From assembly GCA_030264375.1 (NCBI GenBank), contig JASCQW010000001.1, positions 93,473,182 through 93,537,181 of the forward strand: a DNA stretch of 64,000 nucleotides. Direction: 5' to 3'. The position numbers were made by a program, and so were the translations under genes. This DNA is from Carcharhinus longimanus. Taxonomy: Eukaryota. Of the stretch, positions 15,575 through 64,000 are shown piece after piece. A model generated the notes under the pieces. It ran no database searches, was not told where the DNA came from, and worked only from the letters and a program-made list of their open reading frames with translations. Each line of letters opens with the position of its first letter. The first letter of the stretch is position 1.

Positions 15575-16806
15575 CATTATAGTACCTTTTCTTCCTGCAT
15601 CCAAGTCATTAATACAGATTGTAATTGGTTGGGAGCCGAGGACTAAATCTTGTGGCATCCACTTGTTAGATCTTGCCAACCAGAAGAGGTCCATTTATTC
15701 CAATCCTCTGCTTTCTGTTGGTTAGCCAGTCCTCCATCCAAGCTAATAAATTATCCCTAAGTGATCTTATCTTGGGTATTAACTTTTTATGTGCCACCTT
15801 ATCAAATGCCTTCTGGAAGTCCAGATATACAACACCTACAGGATCCCAATTATTGGCTATGCTATGATTGGTTATGATAAATTGGCCCTTAATCTCCCAA
15901 AATGTGTAGGTTATATGGATTAACCACGGTAAATGTCTAGGGTTATGGGGACAGGATGGGGGTACTCTGTCAGAGAGAGTCAGTGAAGACTTGATGGGCT
16001 GAATGGCCTCCTTTTGCACTGATTGAATTCTATGATCCACTTTGCTTCTTACATCTTCGAAGAACTCTAGCAAATTAGTCAAACATGATTTATCCTTCTT
16101 AAAACTATGCCGAGTCTGATAGGTTGTGTTTTTATTTTCCAGATGACCTGTTATTTCTTCCTTAATAATGGATTCTAACAATTTCCCAACAACAGATGTC
16201 ACACTAATTGGTCTATAGTTTTCTACTTTCTGCCTCCTCCCTTTTTTGAATAAGGGCATTAGCATTTTTCTAATCCACTGGAACCTTTCCCACATCCTGG
16301 GAATTTGGAATATTATAACCAATGGATCCATTGTCTCCACTGCCACTTCCTTTAAGACCCTAAGATGTAGGCCGACAGGGCCTGGGGACTTGTCTGCTTT
16401 CAATCGCAATAAGTTTACTCAGTACCTTTTTTCTAATGATGATTATTCTAAATTCCTTCCTTTCTATTACCTCTGCATTACTTGTTACTATTCGGATGGT
16501 GGTAGAGTCATCCACCGTGAAAGCTGAGGCAAAATACTGATTTTGTGTTCCCAATTTTTCTGTGTTCCCCACTATTAATTTCCCAGTCTCATCCTCCAAG
16601 GGTCCAACATTCACCTTAGCTACTCTCTTCCCTTTTACATATTTATAAAAACTTCTGCCATCCTTTTTATGTTTTGTGCTAGTTTTCTTTCATAATTTAC
16701 CTTTGCTCTTTTTATTTTTTTAGTAACCCTTTGTTGATTTTTAAAAGTTTCCCTATCTTCCAGCCTGCCACTGACTTTTGCAATATGGTATGTCTTAGCT
16801 TTGTCT
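15575..16806 (-). mobile_element. CR1 LINE ORF2 (reverse transcriptase) fragment, decayed
   Basis: LKADKSPGP..HLRVLKEVA..NYRPISVTSVVGKLLESII..SCLTNLLEFFEDV..VVYLDFQKAFDKV..W.EDWLTNRKQR motifs, with frameshifts. Confidence 0.9.
15854..16034 (+). mobile_element. HE1 SINE 3' half inserted antisense into the CR1 RT
   Basis: gattggttatgataaattggcccttaat...gatgggctgaatggcctccttttgcactgattgaattctatg lies between CR1 codons KVD and NWDP. Confidence 0.8.
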
Positions 16807-31600: not shown

Positions 31601-31821
31601 CTCAAAAACTAGCTACAAAAATTACCAGCTTCCACAGAGCCGATTATCCACAAGGAGGTGCATGCTTCTGGCCGAATCACACAGGTCACATAGGAAAGAA
31701 TTTTCTGTGGGATGAAATGATGTTGTGCAACATTATGTATATGAAGGAATTTACATGAACACGTTAACTATTTGGATGCTGGTATTTGTGATTCCTACCC
31801 CCACCCCCCATACCCCCACCA

Positions 31822-32082
31822 CCCACCAACACAGTCCCCATTCCCCACCCACAGACCCCCAACAACACAGTCCCCCATTCCCCACCCACAGACCCCCACC
31901 AACACAGTCCCCCATTCCCCACCCACAGACGCCCACCAACACAGTCCCCCATTCTCCACCCACAGACCTCCCACCAACACAGTCCCCCATTCCCCACCCA
32001 CAGACCCCCCACCAACACAGTCCCCCATTCCCCACCCACAGACCCCCACCAACACAGTCCCCCATTCCCCACCCACAGACCC
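31822..32082 (+). repeat. About 37-bp C-rich minisatellite, roughly 7 visible copies, running into a gap
   Basis: Unit CCAACACAGTCCCCCATTCCCCACCCACAGACCCCCA repeated with single-base variants. Confidence 0.95.
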
Positions 32083-34430: not shown

Positions 34431-37241
34431 ATATGGATAACATATTTCATACCAACTAGTTTGATCTCCAGAGAAAGGAGAGAGAAGGGCAGAAACATGA
34501 ATTGTCAAGCTCAATTCCCATCCATACCAGATCCACAGGATAAACCAATGGAACAGATCTGGAACACTGAATACAACACACACAACAAACATGTGCAGCT
34601 AATATTTGGAGTCTTTTACTGCCCGTGTCTAAATACTAAGTATATTTAGATGCCCATATTGCTTTATGATAGCAATAATAGAGCTGGTCTGGGCAGATTC
34701 CAAAGCCCGGAGGCAATTGCTTAGCTTGGATGAAGGTTACTAGATTTACAGATTCCAGTCCTTACTAGAAAATTGCTAAATTTATAAGAAATCATTGGTA
34801 CACACTTAATGGAATTATGTTTCAGTGCTGCCGGCTAAACAAATAACTTGCAGCCACTTCCGTTTTGGTTTTGATTCATTAAGTGGAGTTGGGATGCTAA
34901 GGTCACCCAGGTCAAGGATCTTTGGCTTAAACCTGGGTTTCTTCTGTTCTGCATGGTTCAATACAACAACATGCCATAAGGTCACTTTGCTCTCACATCC
35001 TACAATGTTCTTTAATACACAGCAGTGTCAAAAATAGCCAGACAAATTATTTATTTTCTCATTCTGCATTTTAAGCAATTCACCTTTTGAGGGTGGGGGT
35101 AAAAAGAGCTTTGAACAACATGGAGTATTAGAAAATAATGAGAAGAAACAGTAATTAGGTATACACAGCTACCCTGCAGATATCTTTAGTTTAGTCAGGG
35201 CCTCTGGTTCTTAGATGCTGGAGTACCTCTTTTGCTCAGTACTTAGCTCTTTTCTATACCCTATACAACAGCCATTGTACCCTAAGCTTGCACCTGTGCC
35301 ATTTTTTTGAAAACATGCATAATGTTGCCGAACTGCGCTGTACATAAGTTATTTTTCTTGTGTCAATGATGAAGTGCATGACATCTCTAAACAATATCAG
35401 AAAGTACCAAGACATGCAGGCAGCAGTAATTCTAGCAAGTGACCACCTTCCTTTTATCACACTCTGCTTCTCACCTGCAGAGCTGTAAAGAGGTCAAATT
35501 GAAGGACAATCGAGATGAGGAATCGACAAAAATGAACACTCACAATCTTACCTCCACTGGGCCACTAACTAATGAAGGCAATGTCAAAAGCCATCCCATC
35601 TCACTCAACAGAATAAAAGAACAAAAATGAGAACAATTCAAAGCAGCTTTTCACAAAAAGGATGCTGATTTGATATACAAATGCCTTGTCTAGCTTTCAA
35701 TTTTCTCCCACATAACTCTTGACTGTTACAACCTGCAAATTAAGAACTGCTCTGCTCGTGTTTCATTACGTTTCTGCACTAAATGTTACTTTCTTTAAAT
35801 CCAAATGCTGAATGCAGCCAAAATAGCATTTTACAGTAAAAAGGCTTTATTAACACTGTAACATGACGNNNNNNNNNNNNNNNNNNNNNNNNNNNNNNNN
35901 NNNNNNNNNNNNNNNNNNNNNNNNNNNNNNNNNNNNNNNNNNNNNNNNNNNNNNNNNNNNNNNNNNNNNNNNNNNNNNNNNNNNNNNNNNNNNNNNNNNN
36001 NNNNNNNNNNNNNNNNNNNNNNNNNNNNNNNNNNNNNNNNNNNNNNNNNNNNNNNNNNNNNNNNNNNNNNNNNNNNNNNNNNNNNNNNNNNNNNNNNNNN
36101 NNNNNNNNNNNNNNNNNNNNNNNNNNNNNNNNNNNNNNNNNNNNNNNNNNNNNNNNNNNNNNNNNNNNNNNNNNNNNNNNNNNNNNNNNNNNNNNNNNNN
36201 NNNNNNNNNNNNNNNNNNNNNNNNNNNNNNNNNNNNNNNNNNNNNNNNNNNNNNNNNNNNNNNNNNNNNNNNNNNNNNNNNNNNNNNNNNNNNNNNNNNN
36301 NNNNNNNNNNNNNNNNNNNNNNNNNNNNNNNNNNNNNNNNNNNATCTGACTGCAGATATAACCCGAGAGTTCACCTCACCCCTGAGAATAGTGATATTCA
36401 ACAATACCACTCTGCTAAATACAGCATAGAATGGACAGGTATTTGGTGCTGAGCATGTAGATTACAGTGACATCTAAACTCCATTATGGAAATGAATATT
36501 AGATATTCCAAGCACTGCTACTTCACAGGTTAAAGAACCATCTTCATTAAACAGGTACATAAAATTCACATGCAAAACAATCTACCCTTTCCCATATCTG
36601 GAGTTTTTTACTCGGCTAATCAGTGTCAAACTCCCCAAATCCAAGTACTGACAAATCATGGAAGAACAGCTGCCGTTTTTTTCGTCAATTTTCCTCAATT
36701 AAGCAATTAAAGATTTTTCTCTCTCTCATAACCTGAGGAGGAAGTAAAATTGTGAATGTCTGCTGTGGTGGATTAACTATGTTATTATCAACTCCCTCTT
36801 CTCCCTTTCTAATAGTCGAGCGTGTTATTAACATCACTCTAAAAAGGCTTTCAGCTATTTCCCAAACAATCAACGGGAGTTCCTGCTGTTAGCTCTCTCA
36901 ACCTTGACAATACAGAATTAGAAAGAGACAGTAACCAGTCTCCCAACTACTACATAACCCCCCACACCCCCACTCCCATTCTTCAAAGAACACAGTAAAC
37001 CCTTTGCTCCTGTTCACTGTCAAATATTCTCAAAGTCTACATTTCCGTTCTTTTACAAGTACGTCAACTGTTCAATGTCTGTTCATGGTCTGCTATTTCT
37101 GCAGTCCCCTGGTGGCTCTGCCAGTAAATAGCCCAGGAATACAGAATAGGAGAATCCTAGATTCAATCTTAATTTGTTCTGACTTACGAAGGCAGGTATG
37201 CTATAACTGTCTCACTATTTATGAGTAAGAGGAAGGGAGTA

Positions 37242-39699: not shown

Positions 39700-40763
39700 G
39701 TAGAACAGAACATCAATGAGAGGTGCTGAAATGTGATTAAGAACAAGTTTATATCAAAGGGCTATGCTTACCAAAAAAAAGCATGGATGACGAGGGAATA
39801 CAGAAAAATATACAAAAGTACAAAAAGGCACATATCCTGGTGATGGAAAAAGGTACAAAGAGAAGCAAAGAGTGACAAAACATTTGGACTGTGCTACAAA
39901 AAAGGGAACAGAAAAGAAGCAAATGAAATCAATAGGAATACGATTTATGCTTATATTAAGAAAAATAGCGTGGACAAATGCAATGTGGGCCTTTGAAAAC
40001 TAATAATACTATTATTGCCTATGATAACAAGGAACTGATAGGCACATTGAATAATTACTTTGCATTAGTATTTACAGTAGACCAGGTGATAGCATAAGGA
40101 CATCCTAAGGAAAGTAAAATTGAATTGGGCGCTTGCCAAATTAACATAAGCAAAGTAACAGGAATTGAGAAAATGAAGGCAATAAAGAGTGTCACATCCC
40201 TAGAACTAAATGGTTTCCATCCTAGGGTTTTAAAGGAAGTAGGCAACAAAATTGCACATGTCACTCAGCTATTTAAAAAGGTCAGAAATTGAAACCAGTG
40301 AACTGCAGACCAGTTATCCAACATCTTTTGTTAGGGACTAGACTATAATTGGGGAACAAGCAACTGACCACCTTGAAAATTTTCAACTGATCATATAGAG
40401 AGCCAGCATGGATTTGTAAAGGGTAAGTCATGCCTAATGAACATGACTGAATTTGTTTGAACAATTAATAAAATAGTGGACAGAGGAGTGCCTATGGATG
40501 TGATTCATATGGTTTTTCAGAAGGCAGTTAGTAAAGTATTAATGAGAGACAATATAGTGAAAGTGAAAGCTCATGGAACTGAAGGCAGCTTAAATACCTA
40601 CTTAGAAAATTGGCTGGAGTGCTGGGAGAAGGCAGCAGGCTAATGGGCAGGACATCTAATTGGCAGGATATGTGCAGTAGTATTTCACAAGTATCTGTGC
40701 TGGGGCCTCAATTAGCCATGGTATTTATGAATGACTTAGTTGATGGGACAGAAATTCATATTA
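39700..40763 (+). mobile_element. Old CR1 ORF2 fragment (left part of an interrupted copy)
   Basis: FHPRVLKEV, SQHGFVKGKSCL, VD.GVPMDVI..FQKA, SVLGPQL..FMNDLVDG remnants. Confidence 0.75.
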
Positions 40764-41985
40764 TAAGAACATAAGAACTAGGAGCATGACTAGGCCATCT
40801 GGCCCCTCAAGCCTGCTTCATAATTCAATAAGACCATGGCTGAGTTTTTCATGGACTCAGCTCCATTTACCCACCCGCTCAACATAACTCTTAATTCCTT
40901 TACTGTCCAAACATTTATCTAACCTTGCCTTAAAAATGAGGTAGCCTCGACTGCTTCACTGGACAAGGAATTCCACAGATTCTCAACCCTTTGGGTGAAG
41001 AAATTCCTCCTCAACTCAGTCCTAACCCTGCTCCCCCTTATTTTGAGGCAATGCCCCCTAGTTCTAGTTTCACCTGCCACTGGAAACAACTTTCCTGCTT
41101 CTTTCTTATTATTCCCTTCATAATTTTATATGTTTCTATAAGATTTCCCTTCATTCTTCTAAATTCCAATGAGTATAGCCCCAGTCTACTCAGTCTCTCC
41201 TCATAAGCCAACACTCTCAACTCTGGAATCAACCTAGTGAATCTCTTCTGCACCCCCTCCAGTGCCGGTATATCCTTTCTCAAGTAAGGAAACCAAAACA
41301 GAACACAGTACTTCAGGTATGGCCTCACCAGCACCTTATAAAGCTACAACATAACCTTGCTGGTTTTAAACTCCATCCAATGAAGGACAAAATTGCATTT
41401 GCCTTCTTAATTACCTACTGCACCTGCAAACCAATTTTTTGTGATTCATGCACAAGGACACCCAGGTCCCTCTGCACAGCTGCATGCTGCAAATTTTTAC
41501 CTTTTAAATCATGGTTCATTTAGCTGTTGTTCCTACCAAAATGGATGACCTCACATTTACCAACATTGTACTCCATCTGCCAGACTCTCGCCCACTCACT
41601 TGGGCTATCTATATCCTTTTGCAGACTTTCAGCATCCTCTGCATGCTTTGCTCTGCCACTCATCTTAGTGTCATCTGTGAATTTTGATATACTACACTTG
41701 GCCCCCAAATCATCTATGTAAATTGTAAACAACTGCAGTCCTAACACTGATCCCTGAGGTGCATCACTCGTCACTGATCACCAACCAGAAAAAAAACCCA
41801 TTTACCTCCACTCTTTGCTTTCTGATAGGTAACCAGTCCTTTATCCATGCTAATATGTTATCCATATCAGCGTGCACCTTTATCTTATGCAGCAGCTTTT
41901 GGTGCAGCACCTTGTCAGATGCCTCTGGAAACCCAGATACACCACATCCACAGGTTCCCCATTGTCCACTGTGCACGTAATGTCC
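40764..41985 (-). mobile_element. Younger 5'-truncated CR1 copy, 3' end at left
   Basis: Tail taagaacataagaactaggagc; ORF remnants VDNGEPVDVVYL, PQGSVLG, FTDDTK, WQMEYNVGKCEVIHFG, LVRPYLKYCVLFW. Confidence 0.9.
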
Positions 41986-42007
41986 CCCGTAATAACTTGC
42001 GGATCAC

Positions 42008-43862
42008 ACAGACAAATGGCTGAGGAATTAAATTTGTACTTTGCTTCAGTCTTCACAAAGGAAGACATGAATAATATACCAGAAGTGCTGAGAGAAACAC
42101 GTTTTTGTGAGGTGCTGAAGGGAATCAGCATTAGTAGAGAAATGGTTTGGGGGTAATTGATGGGATTGCAGGTGGATAAATCCCTAGGTCCTGATAATCT
42201 TCATCCCAGATTACTTAAGAAAGTGGCCCTGGAAATAGTAGATTCATTGGGGGTGATTTTTCAAAATTCTTTGGATTCTGGAATAGTTCCTACAGATTGG
42301 AGGGTAGCTCATCTAAGTCTGCTATTCAAAAAGGAAGGGTGNNNNNNNNNNTTATAGACCAATGAGCTAATGATAATACTGGGGAAGTTGCTAGAGTCTA
42401 TTATCAAGGAGTCCATAACTCGGCATTTGAAATCGTATAATCTGACAAATTCAACATTGATTTACAAAAGGGAAGTCATGTTTGATGAATCTATCGGAAT
42501 TTTTTGAGGATGTAACTAGGGGAGTTGACTGAGGAGAACCAGTGGATGTGGCTTACCTAGACTTTCAGAAGGCTTTTGACAGGTTCTCTCATAATAGACT
42601 ACTATGTAAAGTTAAAGCACAGGAATTGCAGGTAATGTCTTGAGATGGATAGAAAGCCAGTTAGCAGATAGAAAGCAAAGAGTTGGCATAAATGGGTCTT
42701 TGACTGGCAGTAAGTGACAAATGGGGTTCCACAGGCTTCTGTGCTAGGACCCTAACTGTTCACATTTTATATTAATGATTTGGAAGAGGGAACTGAATGT
42801 ATTATCCCCAAATTTACAGACGATACAAAGTTGGGTGTCAGAGTCACCTGTGAGGAGGATGCAGAGATGCTTCAGTGTGATTTGGACAGGCCAAGTGTCT
42901 GGGTATCTGCACGGCAGATGCAGCATAATGTGGATAAAAAAGAGGTTATCCACATTGGTAGCAATAATAGGAAGATAGATTATTACTTGAATGAGTATAA
43001 ATTGAGAGAGGTGGATACTCAACAAGACCTTGGAGTCCTCATGCAACAGTCGCTGAAAGTACGCGCGCAGATGCAGCATGCAGTAAAGAAGGCAAATGGT
43101 ATGTTGGCCTTAATAGCAAGAGAATTTGAGTATTGGGGTAGGGAAGTTTTGATGCAATTGTGTAGGGCATTGGTGAGGCCACACCTGGAGAACTGTGTGC
43201 AGTTCTGGTGTCCTTATCTGAGGAAGGATGTCCTTGCTATAGAGGGAGAACAGCGAAGGTTTATCGGGTTGATTCCTGGGCTGGCAGATCTGCCGTATGA
43301 GGAGAGACCAAGTTGATTAGGANNNNNNNNNNNNNNNNNNNNNNNNNNNNNNNNNNNNNNNNNNNNNNNNNNNNNNNNNNNNNNNNNNNNNNNNNNNNNN
43401 NNNNNNNNNNNNNNNNNNNNNNTGCCGTATGAGGAGAGACCAAGTTGATTAGGATTATATTCACTAGAGTTTAGAAGAACGAGAGGGGACCTCACAGAAA
43501 CATATAAAATTTTAACAGGGTTAGACAAAGTAGATTGAACTCTCCCAATGGTGGGTGAGTTCAGAACTGAGGTCATAGTTTGAGGAAAAAGGGTAAACTT
43601 TTTAGAACTGAGGTGAGGAGAAATTTCTTCATCCAGAGTGTGGGATTCAGAACTACCTCAGAATGTNNNNNNNNNNTCAGAATGTAGTTGATTTCATGAA
43701 GAAATTAGATACAGCTCTTGGGGCTAAAGGGATCAAGGGTTATGGGAGGAAGGGTAGGGGATGAGGATATAGAATTTGGTGATCAGCCATGATCAAGGTG
43801 AATGGCAGGACATGCTCAAAGGGCTGAATGGCCTACTTTTGCTTCTAGTTTCTATGTTTCTA
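42008..43862 (+). mobile_element. Younger 5'-truncated CR1 copy, 3' end at right
   Basis: MAEELNLYFASVFTKED, DKSLGPDNLHPRLLK, FTDDTKLG, LVRPHLENCVQFW; tail gggctgaatggcctacttttgcttctagtttctatgtttcta; contains three gaps. Confidence 0.9.
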
Positions 43863-43864
43863 CA

Positions 43865-44530
43865 TAAATAAATGTAAGCACTGTAGACTACATCTGTGAA
43901 CAAAATTATAGCAAACCGATTTCAATGTAGGCAAATGTAGGGTCATCCATTTTGGATTTATATAAGATAAAACAGAGTACTTCCTGAATGGGATGAAGTT
44001 AAAAATGGCAGTGATTCAGAGATACTTACAGGTCTATTTGCACAGAGCACCACAAATGTAATGCTGGACTTATATCTTGAAGAAGTCAGAAGTTATTTTC
44101 CAGAATGATGCTGGAGCTTCTAGAAATAAACTGCAAAACTAGATTACACAATCTGGGTTGTACTCCTCGAATTTCGAGGGTTGAGGAATAATTTGATCAA
44201 ACTTTTCAAGATATTAAGGGAAACAGATAGAGAGAAACTATTTCCACTGGTTGGGGGGACCAGCACAAGGAGTACTGTTTAAATATTACTGTCAGACCTT
44301 TCAAGGTTAAAATTAGGAACCATTTCTACACACAGAGTGGTAGAAGTTTGGAATTCTCTTCCACAAACAACAATTGATGACAGGTCAATTGTTAATTTTA
44401 AATCTGAAATTGGAATGCTTTTCCCCAGTCATATTAAGACAGGTATACGGGGTTAGGTGGAGATCAGCCATGTTCGCAGAAGGAAAGATCAGGCTCACAG
44501 GGAAAGATGGTCTCCCCTTATTCCTATGCT
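43865..44530 (+). mobile_element. Old CR1 ORF2/3' UTR (right part of the interrupted copy)
   Basis: gatttcaatgtaggcaaatgtagggtcatccattttgg (DFNVGKCRVIHFG) continues the 39700-40763 copy; ends in a CR1-like 3' UTR. Confidence 0.7.
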
Positions 44531-49789: not shown

Positions 49790-52700
49790 NNNNNNNNNNN
49801 NNNNNNNNNNNNNNNNNNNNNNNNNNNNNNNNNNNNNNNNNNNNNNNNNNNNNNNNNNNNNNNNNNNNNNNNNNNNNNNNNNNNNNNNNNNNNNNNNNNN
49901 NNNNNNNNNNNNNNNNNNNNNNNNNNNNNNNNNNNNNNNNNNNNNNNNNNNNNNNNNNNNNNNNNNNNNNNNNNNNNNNNNNNNNNNNNNNNNNNNNNNN
50001 NNNNNNNNNNNNNNNNNNNNNNNNNNNNNNNNNNNNNNNNNNNNNNNNNNNNNNNNNNNNNNNNNNNNNNNNNNNNNNNNNNNNNNNNNNNNNNNNNNNN
50101 NNNNNNNNNNNNNNNNNNNNNNNNNNNNNNNNNNNNNNNNNNNNNNNNNNNNNNNNNNNNNNNNNNNNNNNNNNNNNNNNNNNNNNNNNNNNNNNNNNNN
50201 NNNNNNNNNNNNNNNNNNNNNNNNNNNNNNNNNNNNNNNNNNNNNNNNNNNNNNNNNNNNNNNNNNNNNNNNNNNNNNNNNNNNNNNNNNNNNNNNNNNN
50301 NNNNNNNNNNCCATTGGCCGGCTCAATCTTTTTCTGGGGAGTGGGTGCTGTACTCCTCTAGTGATTATCTGGGTTCTCAGCCAAGCATACATAATGATGC
50401 TTGGTGAAGCCCAGACAAATATGTTTGTTGAACCAGCTGCTCCCCACAAGAAACACTGTTTGTTTGACAGCTCAGAACTCTGCTGTCAATTTCACAATTT
50501 GTTTAGACAGGGGTTTCAAGGGTTTGATTTTTACTTTTTTTTACATTTGCCAAAATGCACTATAGGGTTCACTGGTTCTACACAGCACATAGTGGGTCAA
50601 TAGGCATGGACATAGGGGGCATGATGGACAATAAGTGGTGAGTGGAAGGGCATGAGGGTAAACTTTTGAACTTAATTTTTAAAAGGTCCCATGTGCACAC
50701 TAGGGTTCACATCTCTTCTGAGGAGTCACGAACTATGGCTCTTTAAAAACCTGGCCTGATACCATGAAAATTGCAAAGGAGTAGGAAATGCTTATCCCCT
50801 CAATACAGCAGGTCATGTTGGGAGTGCCAGATGCAAGCTTTTTGACAAGAATCAGCCCACACCTTTTTAAGACACTCCAGAAAATCAAACAGCCCAAGAA
50901 TGGGATTGGCAATCCTGGAATCTGAACTTTATGTTCTCTTCACAACTCATTCTCCTGCCTATCTTTGCATTATCAGCAAATTTAGCAACATACGTTCTGT
51001 CCCTTCATCNNNNNNNNNNNNNNNNNNNNNNNNNNNNNNNNNNNNNNNNNNNNNNNNNNNNNNNNNNNNNNNNNNNNNNNNNNNNNNNNNNNNNNNNNNN
51101 NNNNNNNNNNNNNNNNNNNNNNNNNNNNNNNNNNNNNNNNNNNNNNNNNNNNNNNNNNNNNNNNNNNNNNNACACAAACAGCCATGGGATCCATCCCCTC
51201 ACCACAAGTAATCAAGCTATGTGGCTTTTCAGTGCCAATTATTTAAATTGAGAGAAACAAAGCGGAGGGCAAGCTGTCACAACACAATTTATTCCACACA
51301 TGCAGTTATACCAGCAATGATTTACAGGTCCAAATAGCCATTGTTGGAATTGTTTTTCGCATTATGTAGTGCATGCCCAGCCAGCACTCCGTACTGTACC
51401 ACGTTTTTGTGGTTACTTGGCATACTGCAGTATAATTAAACAATTAATAACATTATTTTCTGTAAATAAAACACAAAGCAGGCTTTGTGTGATAAATACT
51501 GATCAGTTTAACAATGAATTGTGACTGTGCCAATGGTTAGTTCCATCTTTTCCTCGTGTGCATCACCTGTTTTATTGCTCTTCGGTAGACTACAATCATT
51601 CAGTTAGTATTTCATTTTTACAGATAAAGAAAATAAAACTAAGGAAACGCAATCTTACTGATTTCAAAGTTTTCTTTCATCTCAGAAATAATTGAGATCC
51701 CTAGGTTTTGCTGCATTCCTTGAGAATTAACCTTGACATCAAGAGTTTTTAATATTTGTTTTTACAACACAAACAGTATCCCAGTTTGAAAAGCCTTTCA
51801 TGATCCTGTTGGTAGCCATTAGCAACCAAAAGTCATTGAGATGACAAAGAATGTGCAGTCTATTTTTTGCCCATCCTTTTGTTTACTGTTAGTTGGTCCA
51901 GCCTTGTCCATATATATGTCTTCTCCATCTCTTAGGTGATATCCCAGTGTAGTTATGGCAACAAGAGAGAATGATCCCAGCACAACATAAAACAGCGTCA
52001 AAGGAAACTGTGTTTGTTTTTGTATTTTTCCATCGAGGAAATTCATGATAATGTACCGAATATTGCCTAAAGCCAATGGCTGCTATTTACTAGCACTGGG
52101 CTTGGGGCCCTTTGACAAATAAAACCACATCTGGGGTAAAAAACTGTTTATTTAGAGGTCAAGATTAGTAAATGTCCACAAACCTCAAAATAACACCTCT
52201 TCTTCAAAACATAACTGACTTGATCAAATAAAACCACAGCTGTGAGCAATGTGCAAGGTTCCTTAAAGGCTACATGGATTGTTAACAATGATTCACAATG
52301 TGGGCAGTGCATTGAAGTCACATGCTCTCTTGCAAAGCGAGAAGAAGAAGACTTTAAAGTATCATCTATTAACTTTCTTTGGTCTGTGCTATTGGATTGT
52401 GAGGAGATAAAGTGTGTATTTGTGTGTATATTTATTTGTGTGTATATTTATACAATTGTCTTTCTCAAATAACTAGGGCATAACAAACGACCAGACTGCC
52501 CTCAGCTAGACAGGCAGTAAATTAAGAAAAACCAGACGCACAAATGGGAAGAGCAGAATGAGAACACTCTGTGGTTCAGACTTTTTTTTATTTAATAAAG
52601 TGAAAGGCACAAAGAGACTGATAGTTAAAGAGGTTAATTCTTTTACGGACGCACAATATAGAGTTAGCAAATAGGTTTCTGCATAATTAAGGCCACATTG

Positions 52701-54982: not shown

Positions 54983-55515
54983 AACACTGGAAAATTTCAT
55001 GTGAAACCGAAATGTGTTGCTGCATTTATGTTCAGCCTGTCTTTTACACCATTAGAAACTGGCCTTGTGCAATGTAGGAGACCTGGAGAATGTAGCTCTA
55101 TATATTTTAGTTGTGTATCCCATTTCCAAAAGCTTACAATAAAAACATAAAACTGCTTTCGAGGCACGCTATTAAGTGTAGTTTAACAGTTCAACATTCT
55201 CTCGCCACTCTCTCTTTAAAAGTTTGTAAACTGGTTTCCTGCTGTGAGGTATGTCTTGAGCCATGTTAATGGTGCTTGAAATTGACATTATTACTAATTA
55301 AATGCCTCATATAACATGCACAAGGTCTTGTAATTGCATTGCAAAATCTTAGTAAGAAAATGGTCTTTGGACTCAAAGAATAAGTATTTCAATGTTTGTT
55401 AATGCAACAAGACAAGTGTCCAAGAAACTCCTCCAGTCATTCTAATGGACTTGACAGTGTGTATCAGAATTATAAATAATCTCAACCTTAATTTCTAGCT
55501 GATACCAAATTTGTT

Positions 55516-55837
55516 CATAGAATCTCTACAATACAGAAAGAGACTATTTGGCCCATCGAGTCTGTACCAATCACAATCCCACCTAGGCCCTACCCCATAT
55601 CCCGACATATTTACCCACCTACACATCTCAGGACACTAAGGGGTAATCTTAGCACGGCCAATCAACCTAACCCGCACATCTTTGGACTGTGGGAGGAAAC
55701 CAGAGCACCCAGAGGAAACCCACGCGGACACGGGGAGAATGTGCACAGAGACAGTGACCCGAGCCGGGAATCGAACCCGGGCCCCTGGGGCTGTGAAGCA
55801 GCAGTGCTAACCCACTGTGCTGGTACCGTGCCACCCA
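55516..55837 (-). mobile_element. HE1 V-SINE about 130 bp downstream of the Nodal exon
   Basis: catagaatctctacaatacagaaag...gggaatcgaacccggg..gcagtgctaacccactgtgct..ccgtgccaccc. Confidence 0.9.
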
Positions 55838-55949
55838 ATAACGTCAGCCTAACTGTGACACTGATAAATAAACTTTAAACCGGTTACAACGAGGCTTTTG
55901 TTACAATGGGCTTTCCCCCAAATCATCGGATGCAAGGGTTGGGTGTAGA

Positions 55950-56800
55950 GCGTGAGGTGGCATTACCTGCATGTAGGCATGGTTGGTAGGTTTGGTGTCC
56001 TCCCCGGATGGCGACGGGCACTCTCCCTCACAGCGGAAAGCGTTAAATATCTTCGGGTAAATGACCCAGGCTCCCCAGCCAATCTTACCGAACTTGACCT
56101 GGAACTTGATCCTCCGGCACTTGGCCGGGCCGTGGCTCTGCTGGTGGTGCCGGGGTCTCCGGTGAAGGGAGGGGGGGCCGCTCCGTTGGCCCCGGCCCCT
56201 CCCCGTGCCGCGCCGGCGAGCGTTCTTCAGCCGCCGTGCCAGCTCCTGCTTTGGGCGGCGGCCCTTCCGCTTCCGGGGCTTGCGCACGTGCTTGGAGCCC
56301 GTGGCGTCGTTCAGGAGCGAGGAGGCCGGCAGGCAGCTCTGCTCGGGCCTCCGGGAGAACACCAGCAACAGCGCCGTCTCCTCGGACTCCGTCTGACCCT
56401 GGACGGCGCCAGCCGAGGGCAGGGACCTCCTCCTCCTCCTCCTACAGGCCGGATTCTCCGGCCAGTGCGGCCTAGCCTCCCCGGCCTCGCCGCTGGGCCC
56501 CCTCCGGTCGACCCAGCGCCTCAGGATGTCCGTGACGTTGTAGACGGCACAGCCAGCGGCGTCCTCCAGCACCGCACCCGGAGGGAAGGAGCCCAGGAAG
56601 AGCTGGTCCCGGCACACAGCCGATCCGCACGGGTACTCTGATTGGTGATGGAGCTCCAGCGGGGAGCAGGACTTGGCAAAGGCCGGCACACTGATCCTCA
56701 ACTCGGCAAACCGCAGTGTCTCACTGGCCACCAGGGTGGACATATCAAATGTCAGAATCCACCGGCTCCCGTTGTGGTGAAAACCTAGGACCGGGAGAAG
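55950..56800. promoter_or_regulatory. CpG-island-like GC-rich segment coinciding with the Nodal exon
   Basis: Abrupt rise in GC and CpG (e.g. ccgtgccgcgccggcgagcg) relative to the AT-rich, CpG-poor rest of the window; judged by eye, not computed. Confidence 0.7.
55967..56784 (-). CDS. nodal: Nodal (TGF-beta superfamily) internal coding exon 2: prodomain, furin site and N-terminal half of the mature cystine-knot domain
   Basis: Translation contains WILTFDMSTL..LRFAELRI (prodomain), VYNVTDILRRW, LLLVFS, RRPR|HH and CRRIKFQVKFGKIGWGAWVIYPKIFNAFRCEGECPSP..KPTNHAYMQ, matching human NODAL RHRR|[47 protein letters not shown] as recalled. Acceptor ccttctcccggtcctag|GT at 56785-56786 (phase 1) and donor CAG|gtaatg at 55966 (phase 0) are the canonical Nodal exon-2 boundaries. 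818 nt = 2 nt + 272 codons, no stops. Paralog identity (Nodal1 vs Nodal2) not proven. Confidence 0.93.
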
Positions 56801-56811
56801 GACATGGAGAT

Positions 56812-56935
56812 GTAGAGTCATTGAGGTTTACAGCATGGAAACAGGCCCTTCGGCCCAACCTGTCCATGCCCCCCCTTTCTTTGTACCACTAAGTTAACCA
56901 ACTACCTGTATTTTGGCCCCTATCCCCTCTATACC
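56812..56935 (-). mobile_element. CR1/HER1 3' end abutting the Nodal splice acceptor
   Basis: tagagtcattgaggtttacagcatggaaacaggcccttcggcccaac is the reverse complement of the same tail type seen at 1690-1730. Confidence 0.75.
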
Positions 56936-57184
56936 CATAGAAACATAGAACCCTACAGTGCAGAAGGAGGCCATTCGGCCCATCAAGCCTGCACCGACCA
57001 CAATCCCATCCAGGCCTTTTCCCCATAGCCCCGTGTATTTACCCTAACTAGTCCCCCTGACGCTGAGGGGCAATTTAGCATGGCCAATCCACCCTTACCC
57101 GCACATCTTTGAACTGTGGGAGGAAACCAGAGCACCCGGAGGAAACCCACGCAGACACGAGGAGAATGTGCAAACTCCACACAG
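56936..57184 (-). mobile_element. HE1 V-SINE (5' part lost in a gap)
   Basis: catagaaacatagaaccctacagtgcagaaggaggccattcggccc...gaaacccacgcagacacgaggagaatgtgcaaactccacacag, then Ns. Confidence 0.9.
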
Positions 57185-57284
57185 NNNNNNNNNNNNNNNN
57201 NNNNNNNNNNNNNNNNNNNNNNNNNNNNNNNNNNNNNNNNNNNNNNNNNNNNNNNNNNNNNNNNNNNNNNNNNNNNNNNNNNNN

Positions 57285-57382
57285 TCTCTCTCTCTGCAGA
57301 TGCTGCCAGACCTGCTGTATTTTTCCAGCATTTTCTATTTTTACTTCAGATCTCCAGCATCTGTGTTGTTTCACTTTTATTT
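57285..57382 (+). mobile_element. Penelope-like short repeat (family of 53939-54041)
   Basis: tctctctgcagatgctgccagacctgctgtatttttccagcattttctatttttacttcagatctccagcatctg. Confidence 0.65.
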
Positions 57383-57650
57383 AAATATTAAGATATTGGT
57401 TGAGGCAAAACCTTAATCAGCTTGAAATCAATGCATGTTGAACTTGCCCAGGTCTTCGTACCAATTTCCAAATGATTTTCTTTCCTCTGCAGCTTCTTCC
57501 ATCTTTCCTAGATTTAAAGGACAAGCAGGCTGGCTGCTCCCACAGCTTTGTTCACTCATTCTGACACCAAGTGGCAAGATGGGTTTAGAGGCAGGCAACT
57601 TAAATTACTTTACTGATTTGCCCTTATTAACCTCCAGGGAAATACCTGGC

Positions 57651-57941
57651 TGGGGTGGCACAGTGGTTAGCACTGCAGCCTCACAGCACCAAAGACCCAC
57701 GTTCGATTCCCAGTTTGGGTCACTGTCTGTGCTGAGTCTGCATGTTTTCCCTGTGTCTGCATGGGTTTCCTCTGGATGCTCTGGTTTCCTCCCACAGTCC
57801 AAAAGATGTGCTGATTAGGTGTACTAGCCATGCTAAATTCTCCCTCCGTGTACCCGAACAGGCACCAGAGTGTGGTGACACGGGGATTTTCACAGTACCT
57901 TCATTGCAACGTTAATGAAAGCCTATTTGTGACAATAATAA
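57651..57941 (+). mobile_element. HE1-like V-SINE, alternative-tail variant
   Basis: HE1 head and V-core, then tgctaaattctccctccgtgtacccgaacaggcaccagag..ggggattttcacagtaccttcattgcaacgttaatgaaagcctatttgtgacaataat; the same tail as 1750-1881. Confidence 0.85.
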
Positions 57942-60900
57942 TTTTTTTCCTTCCCTTTTTGGAACAGCAGAGATCTGAAACCAATCATGTTGGGAAGAGT
58001 TAGCTTGAGCGATGCCACTTCCGGTTTCCCTTGCATTGTGCCAATGCCCTCAAATCTTCATATAAATTATCATATCATCCAAAGTTGATAATCAGGCATA
58101 GCATTCCAATGAAGCAATATCTTTCAGTTCATGCTCAAATGCTGCATTAAATTTTGCAATTTACATTACTATTTCATACTTGTATGTCAATCATCCAAAT
58201 TTTAAATTTGAAGAATCAGAATAGTATCGAAGATTGCTCATTGCACAAAAAAACTTAAGCCATTTCTGCAGTCTAACTCATGTCCATGTCAATAAATCTT
58301 AAATCACAGCAGCCTGTAGCCATCAGTCCAAATTTAGCTCCTGTCTCCTTTTTGTCTTTGTCCTTTGGTAACAGTAATGAGTTGTACTTGTCATCACTTA
58401 AAGGGCAGACTTATTCAAAACTCCTTACCATCATCTCCCCTCTTCTCTCTGACATTTTCATTATTCAGACCTATAGATTCCCTGACACTTCTTCTCTGAC
58501 CTTTGATCCTTCCTTTAGAGGCCACATTCAAACAGAACAACAAAACACGTTTATTGCCAACCCTGGTTTGTCTGTGATCTCTCATAAATGACCAAAGATC
58601 AGAGTTCCTTTTCTCAATCGACTGGCACTAATGAAAGATAAAACCTCCTTTTTCCTTCTAACGACTCCCTTTGCTCAATTTCAATGTAACTATCAGCAGA
58701 GACTCAGGCGCCCATGGCCAGGGCTCTGGCTGTGCTATACATCCACAGCACCAATGAGACGCGTCAGCATTAGGTAGTTCGGTATTTACTCCTGTTAGCT
58801 TTCCTGTTGATTTATATTAAAGGTCTTTCAACTGATCGACAGAATGGCACAGAAAAGGAAGAACACTTGTGCTGTGCAACACAAAAAGCAGAAACTAGTG
58901 TTTAATAGCATTGTGAAAGGTAGGGGCAATTCATGGGAGGACTGATCCATAGAGATCTAACCAAGTGAATTTGTATTTGGTAAATATTCAGCATCTCTGG
59001 ATGTTTTTCCAAGAATCTGTTGATTTAGCCAGAAAAGTCTAGTTTACATTAAATTTATTGACAATACCGTATAGTCAACAAAGATTTGACATGGCACTGA
59101 ACTGCGTGACTGAATTTTGATGCAATGAAGGGGTGTTCAGAAAAAGAAATGCCATGAAGTCATTTGATCATCTCTGCACTGTATAATTTAACCATTGTAC
59201 TTCCAGCATTGAACTGACAAATGCTGAAAAGAACTCCTGATATGAACTAATGGTTTAATAGATCTGCAGACATTGGTTAAGTAGGGAATCTGAACTAATG
59301 AATGTACAATCGGATATTGGATGTTCTTTACATACTATGTTACATTTAATGGGAAAACAAGATGGGATAAGAGAATTTAAAATCAAGCACAAAATAGAAA
59401 ATGAAATCATGCAACAAAATGTTTGTTCTCGAGTTACATTTGTTTATCTGGTCTTCTCCTCATGTGTCTTCAATAATGAAAGAAAACACTGAATTTGTAA
59501 TCCAAAACTTATGGCAGCATTCCCGATTACCCTGCTGAAGATTTGGGGCAATTAAACAGATCTTTTCCAGCAAAGATGCAAAAACTTATAGGCACATTAA
59601 ATGTACAGGCATCATGAATTATTCAGCTCAAGTTCTGTGGATGTGAAACCACAATGCTTTGAACTTCCAGAAGGCATTTTTTTTTGCATTCTGGGGGAAT
59701 ACTCCACAAAGTCTCCAGGTTGAAGCTGATTCACTCTGGGTTTGCTATTGGGGAATTTAGTCCCTTTATCTGTCATCTAATGCTATAATCATAGAGAATT
59801 GTACAGTCATTAACATTATTAAAACTACATTTCAAAATAACTTCGTGGAAATAATGTGTTGTTCACGACACTTTGAAACAAACTTATAGATCGCATAGCA
59901 TAGTGCGTGTTACAAGCAATTCAACATTTTGTAAGCATTAAAAAGTTATTAAATGATGAGTCAATACAACACATTATCGTAATACAACTCATTTTGCAGA
60001 AAAAATACTAACTGTTTGGTTAGACTCTAATTGCTTTTATAGTGGACATAGTGGGGTCATGGGCCACTAGATCCCACCACTCCGGTCTTGTACAAGTGAT
60101 GGCAAGTACAAAGTAAACTTGCCTAAGTTGCAACAAGAAGAATCCCATTGAAACAAACATAAAAGCTGAAGAGAATAGTGAACATCTTCGCAATTTGCAG
60201 TCATTAGAATACATGGCAATATAAAACAATAGGACACTGAGCTTTCTATACACTGTGGGCACAAATTGGCTTTGGATAAACTGCAGAAAAACTGTGCCTC
60301 GCTATATTGCACTTGTTTGGATGAAAGTAAAATACATTGGCAGCATATGTAGAAGTTTTCACACAATCTAATAACCACCAGTTCAAAATCATAATTAGGT
60401 GTATTCTAGAGATTACTTCACATTCAGCAGCATTTGCAGAACAGTTTGGAACATGCTGCAATTAGCATTCAAAAATGATCTTCTGTAAGAATGATCGGTT
60501 GAGACTCATTTAAGTCCCTTTTAATGAGAATGCCCACAGTTTGTTTTGCCATCCTATTTCCATTTAGTGCACAATTCTTTTTACAGACCCTTTCAGCTTC
60601 CATCAGAGAACTACTGCACTATCTGCAAATGAACTGAAAGACTATGGCACTTTTCATCCACTAATTAAAGTGCTGTTTGCACCCATTGATCCAAATAACT
60701 TTTAATAAAAATTGGATTCTGGCTATTTCCTCACGCTTGTGTGATATTCTGCTTCTTTTGAGGCTCACAGCATGCATTATCAGAGCACAGTAGGACTGTT
60801 TACCCTGTCAATCACCTGTCAATCCTCAGAGGGTTCGACAAACACTCCCTGTGGCTAGCCACTGTCTCTCAGAATACTGTAATTATCATTCTGGCATCTT

Positions 60901-62230
60901 CTACTGTCAAGTCCATTTCAGAAACCCTTTCAAATATTTTGAAACCACCTTCTTGCTCCTCAAATTATTTGCGTGACTACTTTGCCTGCTATATTCTGAA
61001 TCTGATATGGTGCTAACTGGAAGTGTTAATGTTTCCACTTGGAAAAAAGCTTATCTTAAACAGCCATGGCTCAAAGTGTTAATGCAGGCTTCAAAGCTGC
61101 CAGATCGCTACACATCCAGCCACTGGGCTCCAAGTTGGGCGAGCGAACTCCCAGGTGCTGGCACTCGGTGCTGAAGCAGCGATTTACAATTAGTGATAAT
61201 GCATGCGTTGTTTAGTCATTAGCAATTGCTACCTCCGCCAATGTTTTCCACGTCAGATTGTGGCACTTGGCACTCTCCTCCGTGCCTCTGGCTCACTCCT
61301 CCAATACATTCATTTATAAACAGAATAACAGTGTGTTTATTTCCCTTCCACAATCTGGCAGGGAAGGAAGTGTTGGTGGAAAATATGCAGCTTCTCACCA
61401 GGAATCCGGAGTGTTCCCTCACTCTCTTGGTTTTTCAATGGCACAGACATCAATCGCCTTTCTCCACAAAAGGCAAAAACTGGCAAACTTACCTACTCTT
61501 GACTATTATGTCTGATTCTTGGCAGAACTAGCTACTTTGGCCAGCTGATAAAACCTACGGTTAAATTATGGCTGGTTATCTGCATGAACTGTCTGACATT
61601 TGCCAAGCTCTGATTAGTACTTCCTGAACCACAATGCTTATGCTTATTGTTATAGACCAAATTGTCCAGGAATCTCCCTGTCACTTTCAGGACAATTTCA
61701 TCCATGTTCTTTAAGCTAAGAGTGTTTCTTGTGTGTGCAGACAAACTAAGGAGCAAGACTGTTATAGGTCTCTATGTTAAAACTAAAAGCAAGCACTTAC
61801 TTATAGTCAGGATAACCTCTAGTTGTTAGACTAACACTGGAGTAAGCCCAGTGATGTAAATGAACCAACACACATGCCACTGAAATTGTTAAATGTCTCG
61901 CTCAGTGCGAGTTGTATTGGGTGCCTCTGATGGAAATTAATCATTGGCAAAGCCAAATTGTCATCAACGCTGCCTGTAACAGTGAAAGACCCTGGCACAG
62001 TTTCACCAAGGAGATTTTGTTCAATTGTGCCACTGCAGTTTGTAACTTCTGAGGAACAGCTTTCACTGGAAAAGGAGCATTAAGAACATGTGTTTCTTCT
62101 TGAGGAGGAGAAGGCAACATTCCTGGCAGAATGACCACCACAAAATTACTCTAGTCAATAAAAATGAACCAATATTTAACAACAACATTCATTTGGCAGC
62201 ATTTGGTCTACTGTTTAGATATATATGAAG

Positions 62231-62486
62231 AATCATAGACTCCCTACAGTGCAAAAGGAGGCCATTTGGCCCATCAGGTCAGCACTGAACACAATCCTAC
62301 CCAGGCCCGATTCCCGTAACCCCACTTATTTACTCTGCTAATCCTCCTGACACCATGGTCAATTTAACATGGCCAATCAACCTAATCCGCACATCTTTCG
62401 ACTGTGGGAGGAAACCAGAGCACCCGGAGGAAACTCACACAGGCAGTCACCTGAAGCAGGAATTGAATCAGGGTCCCTGGCACTGC
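62231..62486 (-). mobile_element. HE1 V-SINE (internally deleted)
   Basis: aatcatagactccctacagtgcaaaaggaggccatttggccc..ggaggaaaccagagcacccggaggaaac..ggaattgaatcagggtccctggcactg. Confidence 0.85.
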
Positions 62487-62849
62487 ATGTGCAAAACAGT
62501 TTCAAATAAAGGGCTTAATGGGCACACAAGTTAGAGATTCATCCATCCTTGAACCTCGTGACTTAGGACATTCTCCCAGTAGTATCATGTGTGTGTGCTG
62601 GAGAGTCAGAGTTACATCCTTTAGGTTAGAATGTTAAACTAAGGCTCCAACTACTACCTGAGTGCTTCAGATGATTGCTGAAGAGCTCATTGGCACTATT
62701 CAAAGCAAGGCAAGGAGTTTTTCCTCAACAAAACTTTATAGAAATATATTAACTAATTACTGGTGGTAAAGTTAATAAAATATATAAAAAGCACCATAAA
62801 TAAGTAAATAATTAAGTAATCAGATTGGCAGTAGCAGCCTGGATGAAGA

Positions 62850-63127
62850 GTTCTCAGAATGCTTTCAAGATAGCTTCATTGAGCAATGCATCCAGGGAGC
62901 AGCTTTTATTAGACTGGGTATTGTGTAATGTGACAGGATTAATTAATGACCTCAGAACAATGGCACCCCTAGGTAGCAGCGACTGCAATATGACTGAGTT
63001 TTACATCCCATTTGAAAGGGAGGAGAGTGGATTTGAAACTTATATTTTAAACTGAAAGGCAACTATGCGGACATGAAAGTTGAGCTAGCAGAAGTGAACT
63101 GGGATTCTAGGCTAGGGGACAGATCAA
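62850..63127 (+). mobile_element. CR1 ORF2 endonuclease/linker fragment
   Basis: REQLLLDWVLCN..LINDL..PLGSSDCNM.EF resembles the C-terminal APE motif (LDL.L.N...LG.SDHN). Confidence 0.7.
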
Positions 63128-63340
63128 TGGGTTGAATTTTCTGGCCCTTCCCGCTGACGGGATCTACCCATTCTGCTGATGGCGACCACCGTAGCGGATT
63201 CCCTGCCAGCGTGACCGACAAACAACAGAAAACGCTATTGACATTGGCGGGACCTAAAGATCCTGCTGCCGGCCAATAGAGAACTGCCTCCGCCACTGGA
63301 AGACATGCCGCTGGAAGCAGCGAAGCTGTGGCAGGCATTT
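63128..63340. mobile_element. MITE-like element with a GGG..GAATTTT terminus
   Basis: gggttgaattttctggcccttcccgctgacgggatct..ctattgacattggcgggacc; CpG-rich relative to its flanks. Confidence 0.5.
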
Positions 63341-64000
63341 AAGGGGATATTCCCCACTATTTTCCAAAGTGTAAAAATTACAGTAGGGGTATAAAGATAC
63401 GCTAACAACATTGTTCATGGAACGTTGTTGCATGCTATTATTTGGCATTGCAGTACACTTTCAACTGAGGTGTTTTGGCATGATAAGATGCTGTCTAAAT
63501 GCAGATATCTTTTATTGATAGAACCTGCACAGGAGGAGGCAACCTTTTCACAAAGGGGATGTGCGTTTGACATTAGCTACATTATCAGTCAGCTTGCCAT
63601 TTTTGGGGAAGGAGCTGCAAGTTTCTGAAATAAAGAGAAAATCCCTTTAAAACAGAATCAAGGGGATAAAATAATGACTGAAGATTGAAACTTAGAAGAA
63701 TGCAGCCCCTTCAAAAGCAAATGTCCAAATTGTAACTGTTTATCTATTAATTGCTCACAGCCAGTGAACAATCGGTATTTAACATTGACAGATTTTTTGT
63801 AAACTTAACATGGTTTTATTCAGCAATCCAAAGCATGAACTGGGTCAGGAATTTTGTGTATTAATATAGTTTAAGAGTTTTCATGTCTACAATAAGTATC
63901 ACCTAAAATTCATCTTACATAAATTATTTTCCTCAAAATGGGTTATAAGCAAGTGATTTGGAAAACTTTTCCACCAGTAGGGAATATGACACCAGGGAGG

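Follow-up and report, generated by a model that had tools for sequence, protein, structure and literature searches.

The stretch of Carcharhinus longimanus DNA analysed here (the window; 64,000 nucleotides of contig JASCQW010000001.1) carries an intact exon 2 of cartilaginous-fish Nodal1 at positions 55967–56784 of its minus strand (Table 1). Nodal is a TGF-β-family dimer signal that acts in mesendoderm and left–right patterning. The exon is likely to belong to a normal three-exon ground-shark Nodal1 gene in a fragmented assembly; with mis-scaffolding included, its source is very probably an ordinary Nodal1 gene in such an assembly. In this gene, exon 1, encoding the signal peptide and ending in phase 1, would be located either past the end of the window or within the neighbouring placeholder gap, and would be spliced to the acceptor of exon 2, completing Ser-Phe-His-His. 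The donor of exon 2 would join exon 3 (SLLKF...ECGCR), a 153-nt last exon that probably falls within one of the ten downstream gaps or outside the window, beyond its start. By analogy with known Nodal proteins, the precursor would be secreted, cut at its RXXR site by a proprotein convertase and signal as a TGF-β-family dimer.

The best homologue of the exon 2 translation is found at an E value of 7e-156, far beyond chance. Over its whole length, the exon shares 87% and 68% identity with Mustelus asterias XP_078062080.1 (P0001) and Chiloscyllium punctatum BEU43112.1 (P0004, labelled Nodal1), respectively. Among the best 120 of 316 matches, the first 12 are shark, ray and chimaera Nodal proteins (53–87% identity), and the bony-fish Nodals rank after the cartilaginous-fish proteins at 39% or less. 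The TGF-β superfamily cystine-knot domain PF00019 is matched at profile positions 1–54 of 104 (45.4 bits against a cut-off of 27), the remaining positions belonging to exon 3, and residues of exon 2 align with the Nodal portion of PDB 4n1d. A tree was built from 34 rows, selected from the fetched matches and holding no shark Nodal2; in it, the exon is sister to Mustelus (100/100) and then groups with Scyliorhinus (99/97), in agreement with the species tree. On this placement the host is most likely a ground shark (Carcharhiniformes). The surrounding clade comprises 18 cartilaginous-fish rows (100/100), P0004 among them, and Nodal2 forms a separate clade, with a weak deep node (79/70). The two exact translations looked up from the locus have no identical entry in the protein collection. 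According to the accessible part of Kuraku 2024 (PMC12344233), all three cartilaginous-fish lineages carry both Nodal paralogues, Nodal1 included, and vertebrate Nodal1 is single-copy except in X. laevis.

The exon holds most of the prodomain, the basic linker, the RXXR site (RRPR, residues 208–211) and the first half of the cystine-knot domain. Its coding frame contains no stop codon, as compared with 5 and 7 in the two other minus-strand frames, and lies in a wider open frame that runs from 56827 to 55901. The acceptor (...GGTCCTAG/GT TTT, with the slash at the junction) has 79% pyrimidines at –30 to –3 and a single TNAY branch candidate, at –34, and no further AG within 63 nt; the donor reads CAG/GTAATG. 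The first two bases of the exon would finish a serine codon. Phase-1 and phase-0 introns bound the exon at conserved positions, and in the alignment with orthologues it starts directly behind the conserved AKS and runs up to HAYMQ. Two read-through proteins, P0148 and P0150, terminate at AKS-K, and the skate read-through protein P0010 departs from homology after HAYMQ, at the same codon as the end of exon 2. Because these whale-shark and skate gene calls break at the same codons, the edges of exon 2 are native intron positions. The GC content of the exon is 0.67, as compared with 0.41 for the window, and its CpG observed/expected ratio is 0.76, as compared with 0.27 for the window and 0.25 for the flanks. 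A preliminary description of the locus had proposed a stop-free Nodal exon 2 with canonical splice sites and phases, forming a GC- and CpG-rich island, and both points are borne out by this analysis.

Table 1. Features of and around Nodal1 exon 2 in the window.
Feature	Position	Strand	Details
Nodal1 exon 2	55967–56784	-	818 nt (2 nt + 272 codons); homology, PF00019, splice sites
3' splice site of intron 1	56785–56820	-	AG, pyrimidine tract, TNAY candidate at –34 inside repeat tail; putative branch
5' splice site of intron 2 (GTAATG)	55961–55966	-	phase 0, after HAYMQ
Interspersed repeat 3' tail	56813–56938	-	presumably a CR1-type LINE; ends about 28 nt before acceptor; 67–71% to copies at 7–141 and 1615–1730
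SINE copy cut by gap	56939–57184	-	presumably HE1-type; 81 nt of head missing
100-N placeholder gap	57185–57284		400 nt upstream of acceptor; repeats at both edges
Second-type SINE	57652–57941	+	inverted relative to SINE downstream of exon 2, 84% over 191 nt
17-bp near-tandem duplication	55883–55914		between donor and repeat tail
41-nt repeat tail	55839–55879	+	88 nt downstream of donor; 83% to 1835–1876
Full SINE copy in intron 2	55514–55835	-	same orientation as cut upstream copy, 84%
162-N gap	51010–51171		low edge begins in LINE reverse-transcriptase relic (weak tblastx match, E 0.002)
521-N gap	49790–50310		low edge is a LINE 3' end
475-N gap	35869–36343		19.6 kb from donor; no self-repeat at either immediate edge

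All nine cysteines of the exon are common to the four orthologues checked, the alignment places an RXXR motif before HH, where convertase cleavage is predicted, and 48 of the 51 residues of the knot region are the same as in Mustelus. The three indels relative to Mustelus are each of whole codons. Stops, frameshifts, lost splice sites and CpG decay, which would be signs of a pseudogene, are all absent. Half of the lineage-specific changes (7/14) are to residues seen in other cartilaginous fish, as compared with 18% expected under neutrality (p = 0.006, a value that mutational hotspots could inflate), and the mean BLOSUM score of these changes is +0.5 versus –0.63. The open frame alone is little proof, since it survives 14 neutral changes in 11–55% of simulation runs. 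The branch leading to the exon is 2–3 times that of Mustelus (14 changes versus 5; p = 0.03–0.13 by outgroup), and 3 of 91 otherwise invariant columns are broken on it. Judged from these substitutions, selection acted over most of the branch, the test being an average over its whole length and compatible with a recent loss of function.

The other two exons are absent from the called bases of the window. tblastn with 12 fetched Nodal1-type proteins matches only exon 2, all other hits having E values of at least 0.026, and profile HMMs of exons 1 and 3 from 16 orthologues give best E values of 15 and 1.6, respectively, on the six frames. As controls, pieces of 15–20 residues, taken from sequence inside the model, score E values of 1e-8 to 2e-6, and a held-out sturgeon exon 3 scores 4e-28; exon 3 has 50 residues in all 16 orthologues. 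The blank that the preliminary description had drawn by eye for both exons is thus confirmed for called bases, and the eif4ebp exon that it had not seen is also missing from our motif scans of the called bases of the 64-kb window. Its search motifs were imprecise, as YMM.LY and LSMLY read HM[IVL].LY and mostly MSMLY in shark Nodal1, but the stronger searches return the same blank. The 7 kb that it counted as searched upstream sequence amount in reality to 400 contiguous bases, which are repeat almost throughout and end at a placeholder gap. In almost all vertebrates Nodal lies between EIF4EBP2 and PALD1, an order better conserved among bony vertebrates (10.1101/483974, in its accessible part); no motif or Pfam match to either gene is found in the window. 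A Pfam search of 300 of the 338 non-repeat ORFs of at least 52 residues reveals no neighbouring gene. The single match above cut-off is to RVT_1, from a 250-residue ORF at 15669–16418 within a reverse-transcriptase relic (15579–16580, minus strand), and six further matches below cut-off were taken as noise. Rfam gives no match on 1–55400 and 55840–64000. A FoxH1-type motif, tried as a mark of Nodal intron 1, was rejected at 17 matches against 17.1 expected.

Given the gaps and the short contiguous flanks, the absence of exons 1 and 3 is weak evidence of orphaning. The window contains 11 N gaps, where the preliminary description had listed three, and six of them are exactly 100 N; the pieces between them span 0.2–17.7 kb. 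The gap-free piece bearing exon 2 is 6,013 bases long and extends for 400 contiguous bases before the acceptor and for 4.8 kb after the donor. A run of 100 N is not a measured size, since the edges of one such gap overlap by 32 nt and another, next to the cut SINE, lacks the 81 nt of the SINE head together with the start of the next repeat. Exon 1 may lie past base 64000, 7.2 kb away. Several points stand against the ordinary reading: the 56 kb downstream are without exon 3, so that a gap or a lost contig has to be assumed; the two nearest sized gaps (162 N and 521 N) adjoin LINE relics; repeats are unusually close to the exon on both sides; the branch shows 14 changes where Mustelus shows 5; and neither eif4ebp2 nor pald1 is seen. 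An intron of more than 56 kb is less likely than an exon 3 lost in a gap or on a misplaced contig, given that all 16 orthologues have an exon 3 of 50 residues and that the whale-shark gene is contained within 25,000 bases. The 162-N gap is of attractive size for a 153-nt exon but a poor fit because its low edge begins in a LINE relic. The 475-N gap is a weak candidate place for exon 3, to be taken as a lead only; its upstream edge is not acceptor-like, and no gap of the window has an acceptor-like edge. An AATAAA at 35846–35851 (minus strand), 18 nt past this gap and followed by a U-rich stretch, could be the end of a hidden last exon or a chance occurrence, the chance being about 2% per gap and about 20% over the ten downstream gaps.

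Elsewhere in the window, nested LINE relics in opposite orientations occupy 40404–43955. This segment contains three small gaps, and the edges of two of them are duplicated (over 32 and 9 nt). A 37-bp minisatellite at 31796–32082 (7 copies at 95%) runs into a 100-N gap. The segments 58480–58790 and 61060–61300 are repeat-free and, by eye, less decayed than their surroundings, and are possible regulatory elements.

The whole Nodal1 gene of the whale shark lies within a 25,000-base contig, and the Mustelus record is on a contig of 123,380 bases; both lengths are upper bounds only on shark gene size. The compact gene assumed in the preliminary description rests on human NODAL, with sharks supplying these two upper bounds. 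The very small contigs in the two shark RefSeq records suggest that the Nodal1 locus is difficult for assemblers. One whale-shark gene set lists exon 1 as a separate gene (P0148), and RefSeq P0124 is the full 417-residue protein. The Nodal1 model of Cetorhinus (basking shark) is without exon 1, and skate Nodal1 lies on 1-kb contigs with one exon each. Eleven homologues are shorter than P0001; two of them are shark or skate exon-1 pieces, and none is named from a ground shark. The seven longer homologues include none from sharks and hence no fused shark form, which is a weak test. The accessible parts of the relevant papers describe skate and whale-shark introns as long and repeat-rich (PMC10115646, 10.1101/443036) and linked-read and short-read assemblies as fragmenting genes (PMC7757076). 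The literature searched, which comprised main text, gives no intron sizes for shark Nodal, and the readable part of the skate supplement has no 'nodal' row. Twenty of the 24 sequencing runs listed for exon 2 words share part of them (best 0.81; 17 at 0.2 or above; 10 studies), and no RNA run is listed among these twenty; these matches were not used as evidence. The option of the preliminary description that fits best is that the missing exons lie in gaps or outside the window.

A scaffolding error, in which the exon 2 contig of an ordinary Nodal1 locus was joined to, or placed between, foreign contigs across placeholder gaps while the remaining exons sit on another scaffold or are unassembled, is unlikely. 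It agrees with the presence of six 100-N joins across 64 kb, of which the nearest ends inside a SINE, with the lack of a neighbouring gene in the 300 of 338 ORFs scanned, with the small Nodal1 contigs of Mustelus (123 kb) and the whale shark (25 kb), and with the gene fragmentation described for linked-read and short-read assemblies in the accessible part of PMC7757076. However, the 6,013 bases around exon 2 are gap-free, and the neighbouring SINE copies differ by 16–22%, so that a join inside one is improbable. The repeat-mediated mis-join put forward in the preliminary description is for this reason unlikely at the nearest SINE, but mis-ordering across the 100-N gaps could have occurred.

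The distance from exon 2 to the closest repeat is under 30 nt on one side and under 90 nt on the other. Equally close bracketing is found in 0 of 31,202 overlapping repeat-free placements, a post hoc count for which self-comparison had identified only 16% of bases as repeat; the preliminary impression of an island is fair on this count. Its retroelements are indeed close on both sides, but the nearest on the downstream side is the 41-nt tail, 88 nt from the donor, and not the SINE at about 130 nt. We regard as quite improbable a displaced or truncated copy, produced either by recombination between same-strand SINEs that moved or duplicated exon 2 or by deletion of exon 3 from a Nodal1 gene now eroding in this lineage. 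The tight repeat brackets, the direct-repeat SINEs, the 17-bp duplication near the donor and the branch 2–3 times longer than that of Mustelus would suit such an event, and the accessible part of Kuraku 2024 (PMC12344233) describes possible Nodal1 erosion in a gecko. The similarity of the flanking same-strand SINEs (84%) does not exceed that of other copies in the window, which argues against recent recombination and against the assembler confusing them. Furthermore, splice signals, cysteines and CpGs are intact, the substitutions are conservative, a fused shark form is absent among the 7 longer homologues (a weak test), and the same part of Kuraku 2024 (PMC12344233) reports a Nodal1 duplicate only in X. 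laevis. For the relocated Nodal fragment considered in the preliminary description, nothing positive emerges beyond the tight repeat bracketing and the modestly faster branch.

The TNAY branch candidate (–34) and an in-frame ATG, at 56813–56822 (minus strand), both fall within the repeat tail before the acceptor, so the repeat may be co-opted into the splice signal. In addition, an inverted SINE pair (55514–55835, minus strand; 57652–57941, plus strand) surrounds exon 2 across a gap. An independent function of exon 2, be it as a single-exon ORF or chiefly as a back-spliced circle, is very improbable: the frame is open from 56827 to 55901, the ATG would give 306 residues ending 21 residues into intron 2, and a circle of human NODAL exon 2 is produced between inverted Alus (10.1101/254409, in its accessible part), but the hydrophobic leader of this ORF is probably a chance product of the pyrimidine tract, promoter evidence is lacking, the product would be without the second half of the knot, and the human circle arises from a complete gene.

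As in cartilaginous-fish Nodal1 generally, the exon has the same intron positions, nine cysteines, a basic linker and the RXXR-HH site. It differs from the Nodal1 genes of Mustelus and Chiloscyllium in that only exon 2 is visible, with 14 lineage-specific changes, a first basic run lengthened to RRRRRR, and Tyr in place of Phe242, as in human Nodal. Human NODAL also has a long middle exon ending at the HAY.Q codon and SINEs in both orientations around exon 2. The human gene has three exons, with an exon 2 of 698 nt as compared with 818 nt here, flanking Alus, a circle and an antisense RNA, and it is flanked by EIF4EBP2 and PALD1, neither of which is seen in the shark window. Nodal2 proteins (squint, southpaw and bird Nodal) belong to the same family and share the PF00019 domain, but show only 30–36% identity to exon 2. 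At 56170–56300 (minus strand) and in P0001–P0012, the shark and ray Nodal1 linker is long and rich in Arg, Lys and Gly, and is longer and more basic than that of sturgeon. We speculate that this linker binds heparan sulphate or carries extra convertase sites.

As read here, the locus itself matters little: it adds an unannotated Nodal1 orthologue and illustrates how an important developmental gene may seem disrupted in a draft assembly. A genuine detachment of Nodal1 exon 2, through SINE recombination or exon 3 loss, with the exon then retained under selection and with functional splice sites in a novel transcript, in a protein of prodomain plus half-knot or in a circle, is very improbable. 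If true, it would have no precedent as Nodal1 erosion or duplication in cartilaginous fish within the literature searched. A real fragment would bear on repeated Nodal1 loss and on left–right asymmetry in sharks, since Nodal1 losses are tied to GC- and repeat-rich surroundings in the accessible part of Kuraku 2024 (PMC12344233).
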